A stretch of DNA of 64,000 nt. Source: an uncultured Acidobacteriota bacterium. GTDB lineage: Bacteria > Acidobacteriota > Vicinamibacteria > Vicinamibacterales > CAVVIG01. The stretch lies in the NCBI GenBank assembly GCA_963696165.1, contig CAVOIY010000004.1, positions 44,753 to 108,752 of the forward strand. The letters are read 5' to 3'. Below, one piece after another: positions 13,000 to 60,952 of the stretch; the first letter of the stretch is position 1, and every line of letters begins with the position of its first letter. The notes under the pieces are model-generated. The model saw only the letters and a program-made list of their open reading frames with translations, was not told the origin of the DNA and did not search any database. A program made the translations under genes and the position numbers.

Positions 13000-14137
13000 T
13001 CAATCAGCATCGTCGTCAGCGGCAGGTTCTCCGAGGGTGCCGGTGGATTTCTTCATCAGGTACGATTTGATCAACCCGTCGAGATCTCCGTCGAGGACGC
13101 GGTTCACGTCGCCGATCTGCTCCTTCGTCCGATGATCCTTGACGAGCTGATACGGATGCAGCACGTAGCTCCTGATCTGGCTGCCGAATGCGATTTCTTT
13201 CTTCGCGCCGCCGATCTGTTCGAGCTTCGCCTGGTTCTCTTTCATCTTGAGATCGTACAGGCGCGCCTTGAGCACGCGCATCGCGGAATCGCGGTTGCGA
13301 TGCTGCGATCGCTCGTTCTGGCATGACACGACCATCCCGGTCGGCAAGTGTGTGATGCGGACCGCGGAGTCTGTCACGTTGACGTGCTGGCCGCCGGCGC
13401 CGCTCGATCGATACGTATCGATGCGAAGATCTTTCTCTTCGACCTGGATGTCGACGTCTTCCGGCAGTTCGGGCCAGACGTACACGGAGGCAAACGACGT
13501 ATGGCGGCGCGCCGCCTGGTCGAAGGGCGAAATCCTGACGAGCCGATGCACGCCGGCTTCGGCCGAGAGCAGGCCGTAGGCGTATTCGCCCGACACGGTC
13601 AACGTCGCGCTCTTCAGCCCGGCTTCGTCGCCTGGCTGGTAGTCGATCATCTCGCGCTTGAACCCTCGACGCTCCGTCCAGCGAAGGTACATCCGCAGCA
13701 GCATCTCGGCCCAATCCTGAGACTCGGTGCCTCCCGCGCCGGGATGAATCGTGAGGATCGCGTTCGTCCGGTCGTGCTCGCCGCCGAGCATCTTCTTGAT
13801 CTCGCCCGCCTGCACTTCCTCGGCGAGCACGTCGAGCGCTTGCGCGAACTCGGCGTCGACCGGCTCGCCCGCGTCAGCCCATTCGACGAGAACGGCGAGA
13901 TCGTCGCTGCGCTTCTTCAGCGACAGCACGAGGTCCCGGTCCTGCTCCAGACGGCGGCGTCGCTGAAGGACCTTCTGAGCTTCGGCCTGATCTTTCCAGA
14001 AATCGGGCGCGGCGGCGCGCGCTTCGAGGCGGGTCAGTTCGTCGTCCGGGCGTGCGGATTCAAAGATAACTCCGCAGGTCGGTCGCGCGTTTGGTGAGGT
14101 CCGTGTAGCGGCGCATCAAATCTTCGACGGTGGGCAT
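13000..14137 (-). CDS. prfB: peptide chain release factor 2, expressed via programmed +1 frameshift
   Basis: ORF0 is ATG 14137 .. MPTVEDLMRRYTDLTKRATDLRSYL-TGA. The +1 frame continues ESARPDDELTRLEARAAAPDFWKDQAEAQKVL.. into ORF 13000..13929, which has the RF2 body (..SGAGGQHVNVTDSAVRITHLPTG..). Confidence 0.95.
14060..14073 (-). promoter_or_regulatory. prfB +1 recoding site: SD-like GGAG, spacer, slippery CTT followed by in-frame TGA
   Basis: The minus strand reads CGG AGT TAT CTT TGA A. Compare the E. coli prfB site AGG GGG TAT CTT TGA C (from memory). Confidence 0.9.
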
Positions 14138-14157
14138 GATCTCTCCGATCAACTGTT

Positions 14158-14249
14158 ATCACGAAGTCACGAAGCCGCCACGAAGTTCACGAAACAATTC
14201 TGTACAGAACGTGGTTCGTGCGCTTCGTGATTCTTCGTGCCTTCGTGAT
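14158..14249 (-). repeat. CACGAAG/CTTCGTG-family palindromic element (copy A1) between lnt and prfB
   Basis: Read on the minus strand it starts ATCACGAAGGCACGAAGAATCACGAA (identical 26 nt to 51157-51182) and ends ..CTTCGTGAT. Central palindrome TTCTGTACAGAA. Begins 8 nt after the lnt stop. Confidence 0.85.
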
Positions 14250-14257
14250 GAGGCGAC

Positions 14258-15739
14258 CTATTGTACACGCCGCCGCACGACGACCAGCAATGCGATCGTC
14301 AGCACCACCGATGCGTATGCGAACACATCGCCGAGTCTGGAGTAGACGGTGGCGGCGGTGAGAAAGCGCGCCTCGCCGACGACGACCGACGGCTCGTAGA
14401 TCCGCGTTTCGATCAGCACGCGGCCGTAGGGATCGACCACGCCGCTGATACCGGTATTCGCGGACCGAACGAGGTACCGGCCTTCCTCGATCGCACGCAT
14501 CGAAGCCTGCGCGAAGTGCTGATAGGGCGCGGACGTCCTGCCGAACCACGCGTCGTTGGTGATCGTGGAGAGGAGCTCGCTCCCGGCGGCGACAAACTGC
14601 CGTACCAGATCCGGATACACGATCTCGTAGCAAATCGCCGTGCTCATCAGATGTGTCGTCTCCGGACCTGGTTTGGTCGCCGAGCCATCCGCCTTTAGCC
14701 GTACTTCGAGCAGCGCTGCACTCTCGCCGGGCGAGAAGTCCGACACGGCCTGCACGAGCGGCGCCGCAAAGAAGAACAGCTGCTTGAGCGGCACGTACTC
14801 GCCGAATGGAACGAGGTGCATTTTCCGGTAGAAACCGGCCGTCGTACCGTCGGCCCGGACGAGAAAGGCCGAGTTGTAGTATTTCGTCGGCACGCGCTGC
14901 CCGTTCCTCGTTTCCCACCCGATCTGATCGCTTCCGAGCAGAATCGGCACGTGCGCCTGCCGCGCGAGCGTGCGCACCTGGTCCGCGCCGGGCCGATCCT
15001 CCTCGAAATAAAACGGGGTGGACGACTCCGGCCACAACACGAGCTCTGCGCCCTCTCCGATTGCCTGACGCGTCATCCGGAGATAGCTCTGAAAGATAGC
15101 TGGCTGGCGTGCAGGATCTTCGCGCTCGCTCTGCTCCACGTTTCCCTGAACCAGGCCGATGCGCACCACGTCACCTTGCCGCGTCAACTCGCTTCGCTTC
15201 ACGCGGACGCTGCCCCATCCCGCAACGGCAACGATGATCGCCGCCACGGCGGCGAATGGCAGGTACGGTGTCCAGCGATCCGCGGGAGACGTCCGGCTAA
15301 AGCCGGACGCTACGTTCGTCGCGGCTACGGTCGTCGCGGCGAAGGCGAGCGCCGCGCTCGTCGAGGCGACAAGCGCGGATACGCCGAACACGCCGACCAG
15401 GCTCGCAAGCTGAGCGATCGGGAGCACCGTGACCTGACTGTATCCGAGCAGCACCCAGGGGAAACCGGTGAATAGATGCGTGCGCCCCAGTTCGGTCGCG
15501 GTCCAGACAAACGGCGCCGTCAGCATCGCCGTGCGGCCAGTCGCAGTCAGCAGACGGCGCATGACCATCGCAAAGACGGCCGGGAAGAGCGCCAGGTACG
15601 CGATGAGCGCGGCGTTCACGAGCACTGCGACCCACGCTTGCAGGCCGCCGTACACCATCATCACGCGCGTGATCCAGTAGAGGGTGCCGCTGAAGTACAC
15701 GGCGCCCGCGACGAGCCCGAGCGCGAACGCGCGAAGCAT
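14258..15739 (-). CDS. lnt: apolipoprotein N-acyltransferase (start codon unresolved; frame stays open to about 15846)
   Basis: Polytopic N-terminus plus a CN-hydrolase domain (..VLWPESS.., ..STAICYEIVYPDL..). Upstream of ATG 15739 the same frame encodes the expected first helix ..ALAVLSGALLALSFPKFGHPAIGWIALAPLLVALASART, but it contains no ATG/GTG/TTG. Confidence 0.85.
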   Translation of the reverse strand: MLRAFALGLVAGAVYFSGTLYWITRVMMVYGGLQAWVAVLVNAALIAYLALFPAVFAMVMRRLLTATGRTAMLTAPFVWTATELGRTHLFTGFPWVLLGYSQVTVLPIAQLASLVGVFGVSALVASTSAALAFAATTVAATNVASGFSRTSPADRWTPYLPFAAVAAIIVAVAGWGSVRVKRSELTRQGDVVRIGLVQGNVEQSEREDPARQPAIFQSYLRMTRQAIGEGAELVLWPESSTPFYFEEDRPGADQVRTLARQAHVPILLGSDQIGWETRNGQRVPTKYYNSAFLVRADGTTAGFYRKMHLVPFGEYVPLKQLFFFAAPLVQAVSDFSPGESAALLEVRLKADGSATKPGPETTHLMSTAICYEIVYPDLVRQFVAAGSELLSTITNDAWFGRTSAPYQHFAQASMRAIEEGRYLVRSANTGISGVVDPYGRVLIETRIYEPSVVVGEARFLTAATVYSRLGDVFAYASVVLTIALLVVVRRRVQ

Positions 15740-23606: not shown

Positions 23607-24326
23607 TCTTACGGCATCAATTGAACGTGATGATGGGCAGGCCCAGGCGGTCGCGGACGAGGCGATCGAGCGCCGCCTCTCGCGCGCGGGCGAACGCGTC
23701 GGGCATCATCGTGTCGCGAAACGGCGCCAGCTCCTCGTTCGCTTCTCGCCTGAGGTCGGCCATCACGCACGTCAGCGAACAATCGGCGCGCAGCCTCCAT
23801 GAGCTCGGCGTCGAGCACGGCCAGACGTTCGATCACCGCCCGTCGCGCGTCGCCGCGCACACCCGCGCGCGCGACATCGAGTTCGCGCGCAACCCGGTCG
23901 AGCAGATCGTCGAAGGCCGCCGGCAGCAGTCCGCTCGCACGCGCCTGCGTCAGACGCATCACGACACGCTCGAGGTGCGCGGGCAACGACTGACGACTGT
24001 GCGACTGCCGACTGAAGACTGTCGACTGCCGACTGACGACCGGCGACTGACGACTGCGGCAGTCCCGTCGCCCTTCGCCACTCGTCGAACACGTCGAGCA
24101 CGTCGGCCTCGCAGAAATCGATCTTCACGGGCCGGCGGCGCGGTCCCTTGCGGTAGTAGCGCTCGAAGTACCGATCGATGCCGCGGAACGCGACCTTCAG
24201 CGGAACGCCGTCGGCCGCCCATCGCGACACGAGCTCGAACGAGGGACCGACGACGCGGATCAGATGGCCGTCGTTCTTCTGGCACAGGTACGCTTCGATC
24301 TCGCGGCAGAACTCTGAAGTCTCCAC
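23607..24326 (-). CDS. hypothetical two-domain protein whose inter-domain linker is a heptamer-repeat array
   Basis: GTG 24326 VETSEFCREIEAYLCQKNDGHLIRVVGPSFELVSRWAADGVPLKVAFRGIDRYFERYY..DEWRRATGLP. A linker follows, QSSVAGRQSAVDSLQSAVAQSSV. A helical C-domain LPAHLERVVMRLTQARASGLLPAAFDDLL.. sits in another frame, and the last part ..DRLVRDRLGLPIITFN* sits in a third. No family recognised. Confidence 0.55.
23987..24064 (-). repeat. CGACTGA/TCAGTCG-family heptamer array (copy C1) inside a CDS
   Basis: 78 nt made of 11 units. Plus strand: CGACTGA CGACTGTG CGACTGC CGACTGAA GACTGT CGACTGC CGACTGA CGACCGG CGACTGA CGACTGC GGCAGTC. Confidence 0.85.
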
Positions 24327-45530: not shown

Positions 45531-45674
45531 CTCGCGGGGCCCCACCCCCGCTCGATGACGCCTTCGCGCCGTAGCGCTCGGCGTTCCTAGAACAGAACGT
45601 CGCAGCGGGGCCGCGGCCCTTCGCCTGCTCGTCTTCGCGCCGTAGCGCTCGGCGTTCCTAGAACAGAACGTCGC
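45531..45674 (-). repeat. 75-nt REP-like element copy 2, plus an exact 42-nt tandem partial copy
   Basis: 45531-45605 matches 12626-12700 (71 of 75). The 42-mer CTTCGCGCCGTAGCGCTCGGCGTTCCTAGAACAGAACGTCGC occurs at 45562-45603 and again, identically, at 45633-45674. It lies 9 nt upstream of the acyl-CoA dehydrogenase ATG 45521. Confidence 0.9.
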
Positions 45675-58056: not shown

Positions 58057-58919
58057 CTACGCGCGCTTACGCTTCGCCGTCGCGGACTTCGCCGCTGCGG
58101 CCGGCTTGATCGTCTCGGCCTTCGCCGCCTTCTTCTTGCCGGTGCTCACCGCATCGAGGCTCTTCTTCGAGCGCTTCCATCAGGTTCACGACCTTCGGCG
58201 GCGCCTCGACGCTCGGCGCGACGATCTCTTCGCCGGCGATCTTCGCGTCGATGATCCGCTGCAGCCCTTCCTGGTATTCGTCCTTGTAGGTCGCCAGGTC
58301 GAGCGGCCCTTCGAAGGTTTCGATCACCTGCTTCGCCAGCTTGATCTCTTCCGGCTTGACCTTCGCCGGCACCGCGTTCAGCTCCTCGACCGCGTCGATG
58401 CTGCGGATCTCGGCCGCGTGGTGCAGCGTGTACATCACGATGCCGCGCTCCTGCGGCTTGCACGGCGACGAGATACTCGCGGCCGTACAGCGCGAGCTTG
58501 CCGATGCCGACCTTCCCCTTCATGCCTTCGCGCATCACGGCGAACGCGTCGGCCGCCATCGGGCCGTCGGGCGCGAGGTAGTACGCGCGGTCGACGTACA
58601 TCGGATCGATCGCCGACTCGTCGGCGAACTGCACGAGATCGATGACGCGCGTCGACTCGGGCCGGACCTTGTCGAAGTCGTCCTCCGACACGACGACGTA
58701 GCGCCCCTTCTCGAACTCGTAGCCCTTGACGATCTCGGAGTTCGGCACCTCGCGGTTGCAGTGCGGGCACCAGCGCTTCTGCTGGATGCGCGTCTGGCAC
58801 TCGCCGTGGAGCTGGTTGAACGAGATCGTCCCGCTCGATTCGGTCGCCGGGAACACCTTGACCGGGATGTTCACCAGGCTGATCTTGAGGAAGCCCTTCC
58901 AGGTTGCTCGTGCAGCCAT
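58057..58919 (-). CDS. ku: Ku-type non-homologous end-joining DNA-binding protein; 2-3 frame breaks
   Basis: MAARATWKGFLKISLVNIPVKVFPATES..ISFNQLH..CQTRIQQKRWC.., ..YYLAPDGPMAADAFAVMREGM.., ..GIVMYTLHHAAEIRS.., and a Lys-rich tail ..LMEALKKSLDAVSTGKKKAAKAE..KRKRA*, with TAG at 58057-58059. Confidence 0.88.
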
Positions 58920-58924
58920 AGTAG

Positions 58925-59110
58925 TCCTCAGTCGCCTGTCTCAGTCGCCGAGCCGTCAGTCGGCAGTCCAGATGACGGTCAGTACATGCTATATCGGCAG
59001 TCAGCGGGTTGTCCTGAACCCAATGACGATTCTGACCGGCCCGACTGACGACTCGACTGACGACTGAAGACTTACGACTGACGACTGATGACTGGCGACT
59101 GACGACTACG
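58925..59110. repeat. CGACTGA/TCAGTCG-family element (copy C2): large inverted array upstream of ku
   Basis: The left arm carries TCAGTCG-type units (58926-58968). The right arm carries 8-9 CGACTGA-type units (59043-59110). An approximately 75-nt non-repeat centre separates them. Confidence 0.85.
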
Positions 59111-59509
59111 CGTCGTCCCGCTCGTCGTGCCCGCCGAGGTCCAGGCCGGTGCCCGTGAAATGGATCTCGTGCTCGCCGATCTTGTCGCGCAGGAGCCGTC
59201 GCGCGGCGCCGTAGTTGTCGCCCGGCACGGTGAGACGGCGCGCCAGATTGCGCAGCCGCGAGATGACGATCAGCGTCACGTCGTGCTCGCCCTCGCGCCA
59301 GCTGATGCCGCCGACCTCGTTGTACGGAATGAAGGCCGAGTCGGCCCAGATGCCGTCCTCGTAGAAGCCGCGGCGGATCCGCCGGCTGAGCGGCAGCAGG
59401 TAGCGCGTAGTAGACGAACATCATCGTCTCGCCGAACGCCTGCTGGTGCGAGAACAGCGACCTTGTAGACGACGAGCAGCCCGAGCACGACGCCGATGGC
59501 GAGCGTCAT
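59106..59509 (-). CDS. small two-TM protein with C-terminal PH-like domain (DUF5673-like?); at least 2 frame breaks
   Basis: ATG 59509 [17 protein letters not shown].., ..MMFVYYA.., then ..[82 protein letters not shown], with TAG at 59106-59108. The frame is also open upstream to about 59667. The family name is from memory only. Confidence 0.5.
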
Positions 59510-59678
59510 GCCGTAGTACGGCGGCTTGCGGGCTCGGCCAGGTGAGCAGCGCCGCTGCGCCGGCGCTGCAGGAAGCGCGACGTACTCGATCAGCACCGCC
59601 GCGCGTTGGCGACCGAGAAAGCCGACGCCGAGGAGCGAGCGAGAAACGCCGTCAACGCGTTGGCCACGCGATCGCCCG

Positions 59679-60266
59679 CTACGTCTGTTCGACGCGCCGC
59701 CAGCGTCGGATCGAAGCAGTGCCGGCAGCGCGCCTCGTAGAGGCCGGTCGCGCCGACGCAGCACGCGGTCGCTGCTCGCGACGAGCCGCTGCGTGTGGTT
59801 CGCCGGATCGCCGCAGACCACGCAGATGGCGAGCGTCTTGGTGATGTATTCCGCGATCGCGAGCAGCTGCGGCATCGGCTCGAACGGCCGGCCGAGGTAA
59901 TCCTGATCGAGGCCGGCGACGATGACGCGCTTGCCGCGGTCCGCGAGCGTGTTGCACGCCGCCGGCAGGTTCGCGTCGAAGAACTGCCCTTCGTCGATGC
60001 CGACGACTTCGGTGTCGTCGGCGACCTGCAGCGATCAGCTCGTCGGAGTTGCGGACGTTCTCCGACGCGATCCGCATGTCGCTGTGCGACACGATGTGAT
60101 CGTCGCTGAAGCGATCGTCGATGAGCGGCTTGAAGATCTGGACCTTCTGGCGGGCAATCTGCGCGCGGCGCAGCCGGCGGATCAGCTCTTCGCTCTTGCC
60201 GCTGAACATGCTGCCGGTGATGACTTCGATCCAGCCGTGCTGCGGTTGGCTGCGAACGACGTCCAT
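59679..60266 (-). CDS. tdk: thymidine kinase; 2-3 frame breaks
   Basis: [47 protein letters not shown].. (P-loop), ..[11 protein letters not shown].., ..[45 protein letters not shown].. and ..YEARCRHCF... Confidence 0.88.
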
Positions 60267-60316
60267 CGATCTACCGTCGTGAAACCTCGGCGGACCAGAT
60301 CGATCGAGCAGTGCGC

Positions 60317-60886
60317 TCATACGCGCGACTGGTATTCGCCCGTTTCGGTGTTGACGCGGATCATGTCGCCTTCGTTGACGAACGGCGGCACCTGGACGAC
60401 GAGCCCGGTCTCGAGCGTCGCCGGCTTGACCTGCGCGCTCGCCGTCGCGCCCTTGATGCCGGGCACCGTTTCCTTGACGACCAGATCGACCGTCGGCGGC
60501 AGCTCGATGCCGACCGGCTCGACGTCGTAGAACTCGACGCGGATCGATCGACGTCGGCGAATCAGGTAGTCCATCGAGTCGCCGAGCGCTTCGGTCGAGA
60601 TGTGGATCTGCTCGTAGGTCGACGTGTCCATGAAGTAGTAATGGTCGCCGTCGTTGTAGAGATACTGCATCTCGCGCTCGTCGAGCATCGGCGCGCTCGA
60701 CGTCTTCTTCCGCCCGGAACTTCTCGTCGGCCAGCGTCGCCGTGCGGATGTTGCGCATCCGCACCTGGATGTGCGCGCGCTTGTTGCCGGGCGTCAGGTG
60801 GTGCAGTTCGAGGATGCGGAAGAGGTCGTTGCCGACCTTGATGAGCATGCCCTTCGGAGCCGTGTCGCTTGAATCGATGACGCCAT
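60317..60886 (-). CDS. efp: elongation factor P; 2-3 frame breaks
   Basis: ..[38 protein letters not shown].. and ..[76 protein letters not shown] 60886 (MA..) needs a shift a few codons in. Confidence 0.9.
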
Positions 60887-60952
60887 ATTGTTGTCTGTAT
60901 ATCCTTGCAATCGTAGCACATATGGCTCGGGCCCGCAACCAAACATGCTACG

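Follow-up and report, generated by a model that had tools for sequence, protein, structure and literature searches.

The inverted heptamer repeats that fill the 186-nt spacer in front of ku in this Acidobacteriota genome are, with high confidence, one copy of a genome-wide intergenic class, namely of the CAGTCGT/ACGACTG family of convergent heptamer pairs. The complete explanation that we prefer combines this class membership with a role as an RNA hairpin and an incidental position next to ku, and as a whole we consider it somewhat more probable than improbable. Its parts differ in strength. Most likely, the position next to ku is incidental and the element has no specific role in double-strand-break repair; between an RNA-hairpin or insulator role and no function at all the balance is roughly even. 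Read in this way, the locus is ordinary for its lineage and does not provide the NHEJ gene ku with a special site of regulation or fragility. The genome-wide figures for pairing and polarity quantify the heptamer-array phenomenon, and the interest lies in this class rather than in the copy at ku.

The window, i.e., the whole stretch of 64,000 nt that was analysed, spans C4:44753-108752 of a long-read MAG of the Vicinamibacterales (Acidobacteriota; 4.8 Mb in 5 contigs, 65.5% G+C, scored 53% complete). The genes efp, tdk, a membrane-protein gene and ku (58146-60938, minus strand) all change frame in the assembly. Because the same four genes are intact in relatives, the frame changes are consistent with uncorrected long-read indels rather than with pseudogenes. 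The intact ku orthologue in relative L031 encodes 281 aa with a match to Pfam PF02735 (Ku; E 2.8e-45), and the closest Ku sequences, up to 95% identical over 154 residues, belong to uncultured Vicinamibacteria, Vicinamibacterales and Acidobacteria 'gp6' of soil. The intact orthologue of the upstream gene (L031:543-1100) encodes a predicted membrane protein of 185 aa, for which a Pfam search returned no family. This gene is itself preceded by the thymidine kinase gene, and the order tdk, membrane protein, ku is kept in many relatives; synteny of the upstream gene with ku was detected in 17/29 and 38/80 relatives.

Anatomy and folding of the spacer in front of ku

The features of the locus, with coordinates in the window, are as follows.

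58146..58919, minus strand: ku, open frame as assembled, broken after about residue 154 by assembly indels (three-frame translation)
58920-59105: whole spacer of 186 nt from the small membrane-protein gene to ku, both flanking genes on the minus strand
58921..58968, minus strand: 3' arm of about 5 degenerate CGACTGA-type units, the predicted ku 5' leader (inverted-repeat pairs I1-I3, CAGTC cores)
58925..58929, minus strand: GAGGA, Shine-Dalgarno-like, 5 nt before the ku ATG, paired in the long stem (sequence, pairing probabilities)
58969..59041, minus strand: about 75 nt of non-repeat centre that make up the loop and the inner fold, with the putative ku promoter inside (sequence, folds)
58988..58997, minus strand: conserved ku-upstream motif CCGATATAGC, i.e., gCCGATA(A/T), putative -10 region, 77 nt before the ATG
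59013..59018, minus strand: TTCAGG, putative weak -35-like hexamer, whose first T would be the conserved T at -22 relative to CGATA
59042..59110, minus strand: 5' arm in the transcribed sense, about 10 TCAGTCG-type heptamer units (TRF, sequence)
59106..59279, minus strand: 3' part of the conserved upstream gene, frame-broken (ORF list, translation)

In the sense of transcription, the 186-nt spacer thus opens with about 10 TCAGTCG units, which a centre of about 75 nt separates from about 5 degenerate CGACTGA units. TRF called the right array at 59042-59107 with period 7, 9.7 copies of the unit CGACTGA, 80% matches and a score of 90. It made no call on the left side (58921-58968), where three exact copies of TCAGTCG and one GCAGTCC follow each other at irregular spacings of 13, 15 and 7 nt. 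The best ungapped arms between left side and right array measure 20 nt with 90% (I3), 23 nt with 83% (I2) and 30 nt with 73% (I1) complementarity and lie 62-149 nt apart; as a whole, the two arms are of unequal length (~68 vs 43 nt) and their pairing is imperfect. Allowing up to 2 mismatches, CGACTGACGACTG matched the window 21 times vs 4.4 times expected, a number reached in none of 100 shuffles. The phase of the units should not be over-read, as the assembly has many single-base indels. With the TRF array, the complementary left side and the excess over shuffles, the coordinates and the anatomy that the sequence-only reading had given for an inverted heptamer structure upstream of ku proved correct. 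So did its statement that the right end overlaps the stop codon of the preceding gene: the TAG of the upstream ORF (complement of 59106-59108) lies within the outermost repeat unit, and the 5' arm begins there. At the other end, the last CGACTGA-type unit of the 3' arm reads GACTGAGGACTACT-ATG, in which ATG is the start codon of ku (complement of 58917-58919), and the same GAGGACTACT-ATG was found in a relative of the same genus (L003/L036). The GAGGA stems from a variant repeat unit (GACTGAG-GACTACT). The sequence around the element shows no flanking duplication.

As RNA, the transcribed strand forms one long interrupted stem. Its predicted free energy of -99.8 kcal/mol compares with -70.0 +/- 4.5 kcal/mol for shuffled sequences (z -6.6), and the DNA fold of -51.6 kcal/mol likewise exceeds its shuffles (z -6.2), so that both folding-energy checks proposed for the structure came out in its favour. 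When all 200-nt segments on both strands were compared with correction for GC content, 58921-59120 on the minus strand was the top outlier (z -4.4), and a second heptamer-built element at 14121-14320 folded equally well (z -4.4). The element had also been described as the largest repeat structure in the window. This holds in the sense that it is jointly the strongest fold after GC correction; as a tandem repeat it is outscored by the arrays at 45534-45674 (TRF score 203) and 23987-24056 (score 103).

Several familiar identities were considered for this fold. Rfam covariance models gave no match at E <= 1 on either strand of 58700-59300, and thus nothing that points to a known structured RNA such as a riboswitch, leader or sRNA. 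The intrinsic terminator scan of 58700-59400 returned no terminator-like site, and the 3' arm runs into the ku ATG with no T-run behind it; both results speak against a Rho-independent terminator. A scan of the spacer for consensus sigma-70 promoters found none. A cruciform or fragile site is unlikely at this spacer: cruciform extrusion and palindrome fragility call for long near-perfect arms around a very short spacer, whereas the arms here are 20-30 nt long, 73-90% complementary and set apart by a centre of 75 nt.

Heptamer arrays across the genome and the phylum

The genome contains period-7 arrays of about 42 word families, about 176 in all, and period 7 dominates its tandem repeats, with 169 arrays of at least 3.5 copies vs 15 for period 6. 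Among the families are AACTGAG with 35 arrays, ACCAGCC with 33, ACGACTG with 15, AAAAGGC with 13 and AACGACC with 11. Arrays of the CGACTGA type number 36-39 genome-wide, and several of them adjoin tRNA genes or separate unrelated genes. An inverted partner within 300 nt was found for 62 of the 176 arrays and a direct partner for only 5, so that inverted pairing is about 12 times as common as direct pairing; the control searches gave 8 partners for the reversed and 13 for the complemented word. Polarity is fixed within families, with CAGTCGT as the left arm in 7/7 and AACTGAG as the left arm in 20/20 cases. The order is (X)n ... (reverse complement of X)n and never the opposite. Such a paired layout is its own reverse complement, and RNA from either strand therefore has the same 5' and 3' arms.

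The arrays also hold a preferred position relative to genes. In the GACTG family, 30 of the 39 arrays read CAGUC behind a gene or GACUG ahead of a gene. Within tandem gene pairs, paired elements lie at a median of 12 nt past the end of the upstream gene and 71 nt before the start of the downstream gene, and the former is a REP-like position at gene 3' ends. Convergent gene contexts outnumber divergent ones by 8 vs 4. The centres of the CGACTGA-family pairs are mutually non-homologous and 24-108 nt long. The AGAACTG/AACTGAG family forms hairpins of about 100 nt with loops of 25-38 nt and a conserved palindromic tip, CGGAAAtgggccaaTTTCCG, for example:

C1:754063-754158: AGAACTG/AACTGAG hairpin
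C4:801789-801915: AGAACTG/AACTGAG hairpin

Elements of this family usually follow directly after a gene, and a second hairpin, CAGGCTGCTGAAAA...CAGCAGCCTG, is often found alongside.

Arrays of the GACTGNN type were present in 39 of the 301 sampled genomes of the phylum, some of them with hundreds of matches, and the reversed control word (GTCAGNN) is itself abundant in other genomes of the phylum. Heptamer arrays are thus patchy but phylum-wide, with words that are specific to lineages. Counting four-unit arrays, GACTGNN reached 774 matches in genome G137 and the reversed word 790 in G086, with G126 also being rich, and most of the sampled Acidobacteriota genomes were without such arrays, a very patchy and word-specific distribution. 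Two words taken from the ku spacers of relatives, GGTCGTT and AGAACTN, also exist as families in the focal genome, at unrelated loci.

The closest known analogue are the paired heptamer repeats of Xanthomonas (X. campestris, X. axonopodis). There, GGGAATC arrays form convergent opposite-strand pairs at 70-75 sites per genome, and the type of a site is preserved between species while its length varies (Rehm et al. 2015, PMC4692102). The focal genome resembles them in its intergenic tandem 7-nt units, in the genome-wide excess of period 7 in non-coding DNA, in the opposite-strand arrays with one fixed orientation and stem-loop potential, and in keeping the site type while length and sequence vary. 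The differences are that the Xanthomonas word is G-rich and forms G-quadruplexes, whereas CGACTGA/TCAGTCG is without G-tracts and has no run of three G or C, that the Acidobacteriota genome has many unrelated word families, and that its ku copy encloses a conserved promoter-like motif. The ku element is thus a member of the broader convergent heptamer-SSR kind, not of its G4 subclass.

Heptanucleotides are the most abundant class of long SSRs in many bacteria, as cited from Mrazek, Guo and Shah (2007) in PMC4679880, and slippage linked to the polymerase footprint is the origin proposed for long SSRs in the same study, as cited there and in PMC4692102. No Acidobacteria appear among the ten genomes richest in 5-11-nt repeats, as that survey is summarised in PMC4679880. 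SSRs of this type, including the heptanucleotides of the cyanobacteria Calothrix and Nostoc, share with the focal arrays the dominance of period 7 and a mostly non-coding location, but the surveys, as they are summarised, cover arrays and not the systematic fixed-polarity inverted pairing seen here. Another heptamer, TAACTGA, occurs as direct repeats just before start codons in marine Beggiatoaceae, cyanobacteria and Bacteroidetes (MacGregor 2015, PMC4679880), with 169 direct sets, one indirect repeat, 2-6 copies and a proposed role in translation; it provides stop codons in all three frames (PMC4679880). Its likeness to the ku leader consists in a heptamer with an ACTGA core in the 5' leader that ends a few nt before the start codon. 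Unlike the ku leader array, which has a complementary upstream partner and belongs to a multi-family system, TAACTGA is a single word in direct orientation.

Mobile palindromes were considered as well. REP units have a defined sequence of 20-40 nt and are mobilised by RAYT transposases, with REPINs being inverted doublets with a spacer. The REP, BIME and REPIN elements of enterobacteria and pseudomonads resemble the heptamer pairs as abundant extragenic palindromes close behind stop codons that form RNA hairpins and turn over fast; the heptamer arms, unlike these, are microsatellites. The genome has a single match to PF01797 (Y1, IS200/RAYT-like transposase; C1:324567-324905), with a copy of the palindrome GGTGCCAGGCACGTGCCTGGCACC on either side. 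Identity with a REP/REPIN-RAYT system was rejected, as this gene is flanked by GGTGCCAGGCACGTGCCTGGCACC and not by heptamers and the pair centres are non-homologous. Identity with a MITE was rejected too, because the centre of the ku element is unique and holds ancestral ku promoter sequence that is common to relatives without the left arm, and because of the missing flanking duplication. Together, the Y1 gene and its palindrome look like a REP/RAYT-type system of their own, with no relation to the heptamer arrays.

The ku promoter region in relatives

Within 260 nt upstream of ku, CGATA or the longer gCCGATA(A/T) was found in 72 of 81 Vicinamibacterales loci. The distance between this motif and the ATG is 12-18 nt in 24 loci, with 15 and 16 as the commonest exact values, and 19-40 nt in 13 loci, which have a GGAG-type ribosome-binding site in between. 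The C flanking the motif is almost invariant, and a T at -22 is conserved in 45 of 69 aligned ku promoter regions; beyond this T, the aligned regions contain no clear -35 element. We regard gCCGATA(A/T) as a putative promoter-like motif of ku; in the focal genome it occupies 58997-58990. If the TA of CGATA is taken as -12/-11, then +1 falls on the A of the ATG at the commonest spacing, a geometry which suggests that the ku mRNA may be leaderless in many relatives. CCGATA as a general -10 element of the genome was rejected, as it is only 1.4x enriched in non-coding DNA and is not oriented, in contrast to TATAAT, which is 18x enriched there and oriented towards genes. A 33-nt matrix built from the ku sites matched mostly non-coding sites just upstream of ORFs (among them kdsA-like, DnaJ-like and PP2C-like ones) and may mark a promoter class.

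The gene spacers of the Vicinamibacterales group are rich in arrays, and these turn over fast. In the ku loci of 80 relatives, the density of arrays amounts to 2.2/kb in the non-coding DNA upstream of ku, 1.1/kb in other spacers and 0.018/kb in coding DNA. The difference between non-coding and coding DNA is thus about 60-120x, but that between the ku upstream region and other spacers only about 2-fold, and ku upstream as a special array hotspot was rejected on this ground; it is a mild hotspot at most. Of the 80 relatives, 24 have an array of period 7, 14 or 21 in the 250 nt upstream of ku. In length, the orthologous spacers that separate ku from the membrane-protein gene vary between 10 and 313 nt, and many of them have a similar layout made of other heptamers, such as TTGGTCG...CGACCAA (L007), GTCGTTG...AACGACT (L012/L058) or GACGTTA...TAACGTC (L013).

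Strong folds (z <= -5) were found in 7 of 17 such spacers and were absent from others, including that of a genome of the same genus (z -0.7). Among 35 loci with a long leader, a strong stem enclosing the motif was seen in the focal genome (z -7.4), L058 (-5.2), L062 (-4.6) and L040 (-4.3), and perhaps also in L072 (-3.1). A long motif-enclosing stem hence occurs in only 4-5 of 81 species, and L036, of the same genus, reaches no more than z -0.3. The comparison of ku upstream regions that had been proposed as a check is accordingly divided: comparable elements exist in some relatives, but the enclosing stem is rare and missing within the genus. In evolution, the stem is labile.

The leader part is found more widely. 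Units of GACTGNN, from about 2 to 9 in number, stand between motif and ATG in L032, L036, L039, L040 and L078. These relatives have the leader array with or without the left arm upstream of the motif, and three of them adjoin a different upstream gene, for which reason the leader array seems to be older than the bracket. The left arm seems to travel with the promoter-leader module and not with the upstream gene. In L033, L034 and L063, the spacer measures 10-12 nt and has no CGATA motif, so that co-transcription of ku with the gene ahead of it is probable in these three. Close lineages differ in how ku is controlled.

Possible role and origin of the paired arrays

The preferred explanation would run as follows. 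Arrays would grow and shrink by replication slippage wherever the DNA tolerates them, and either hairpin-templated copying or selection for a stem would favour complementary arms. In the sub-lineage of the focal genome, GACTGNN has expanded between motif and ATG, from which follows a predicted repeat-built ku leader of about 64 nt, with a variant repeat unit supplying the Shine-Dalgarno sequence. Where transcription of the upstream gene continued into the spacer, the two arms would pair as a stem of roughly 60 bp, which would start at the upstream stop codon and hide the ribosome-binding site of ku; for the upstream message, this stem could serve as a REP-like 3'-end or insulator hairpin. The own transcript of ku would start in the loop, near 58983-58981, and carry the 3' arm only and no long stem. 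Promoter, transcription start, read-through and the effect of the hairpin are all predicted from the sequence. The locus may be viewed as a case study of arrays that remodel a control region: a probably leaderless ku mRNA appears to have become leadered, and the arrays appear to have built a ribosome-binding site from a repeat unit and to have wrapped the promoter in a potential 60-bp stem. Slippage alone leaves two things unexplained, namely the fixed polarity and the complementarity of arms on the two sides of an ancestral non-repeat centre, and since this centre consists of ancestral promoter sequence, models that add repeats to both ends of one break cannot account for this locus either.

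Whether the stem matters for the flanking genes is the point on which the main alternative differs. It regards the arrays as a neutral or selfish by-product, either slippage-prone microsatellites or a mobile or copied palindrome, whose hairpin is of no consequence for its neighbours, and we consider it possible although not probable. The length of the spacer and the repeat word change freely between genera and even within a genus, families such as GGTCGTT and AGAACTN are common to different genera at unrelated loci, and both the rarity of the strong promoter-spanning stem and the array density within about 2-fold of other spacers fit this reading. The weak hairpin in the same genus argues against any strongly selected function, the insulator role included. 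On the other side, the 12-fold inverted excess, the fixed polarity and the position at gene 3' ends are unexpected from unconstrained slippage, but copying could also give rise to them. A mobile origin is further disfavoured by the missing link to a RAYT, the only Y1 transposase being flanked by a different palindrome.

The sequence-only reading had found it striking that such a structure stands directly in front of a DNA double-strand-break repair gene. One could thus imagine a device specific for ku, either a stem acting as a riboregulator that hides the ribosome-binding site or a stress-responsive cruciform tying ku to DNA stress. The stem covers GAGGA and ends beside the AUG, the promoter-like motif lies within the loop, and L058, L062 and L040 have the same bracket layout made of other heptamers. 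In the read-through RNA, four of the five bases of GAGGA have a predicted pairing probability of 0.8-1.0. However, pairing of the ribosome-binding site is predicted for the short promoter-proximal transcript too, there with codons at 58887-58891, so the predictions give no clean on/off contrast between the two transcripts, and differential exposure of the ribosome-binding site was dropped as unsupported. Carrying the 3' arm only, the predicted own transcript of ku folds no better than shuffled sequence (z -1.2). The imperfect arms 75 nt apart speak against cruciform extrusion and SbcCD-type fragility as well. Moreover, most relatives, the same genus included, are without the layout, the two other ku paralogues of the focal genome have neither arrays nor a bracket structure upstream, and the same structures adjoin tRNA and housekeeping genes. 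With copies at dozens of unrelated loci and across the phylum, only 2.2 vs 1.1 arrays per kb upstream of ku and an enclosing stem in so few species, the suggested link to double-strand-break repair finds no support, and a ku-specific device is decidedly improbable.

Tuning or switching of ku by phase variation, through gain or loss of units in the 5' arm or on the stretch from promoter to start codon, is very unlikely. Repeats between a putative promoter and the ATG recall the AGAT repeats of Moraxella uspA2 as described in PMC4679880, and the number of leader copies varies from about 2 to 9 among L032, L036, L039, L040 and the focal genome. Yet changes in the leader array alter neither the reading frame nor the promoter spacing, and heptamer arrays occur genome-wide and are not concentrated at surface or contingency genes. 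That the structure is an artefact of an error-prone long-read MAG is hardly credible, even if the completeness of 53%, the many frame breaks and one out-of-phase unit (CGACT-CGACTGA) might raise the suspicion. The same family was found at the same position in independent assemblies of relatives, among them some, such as L078, L058 and L040, whose contig names (k141, k127, NODE) mark them as short-read assemblies, and the arrays recur at more than 36 loci of the genome.

The copy at ku is best placed, as set out above, within the genome-wide class of convergent pairs, and for this class a further origin deserves mention. We consider it improbable that a dedicated, hitherto undescribed process writes the arrays in place of passive slippage. 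The idea arises because a fixed polarity is common to unrelated families and distant phyla and because the arrays lie at gene borders. Hairpin- or end-templated synthesis at stalled forks or breaks could be such a process, as could a protein that reads 7-nt words. If dedicated writing were true, a copy wrapped around a promoter, such as the one at ku, could function as a switch that depends on structure.
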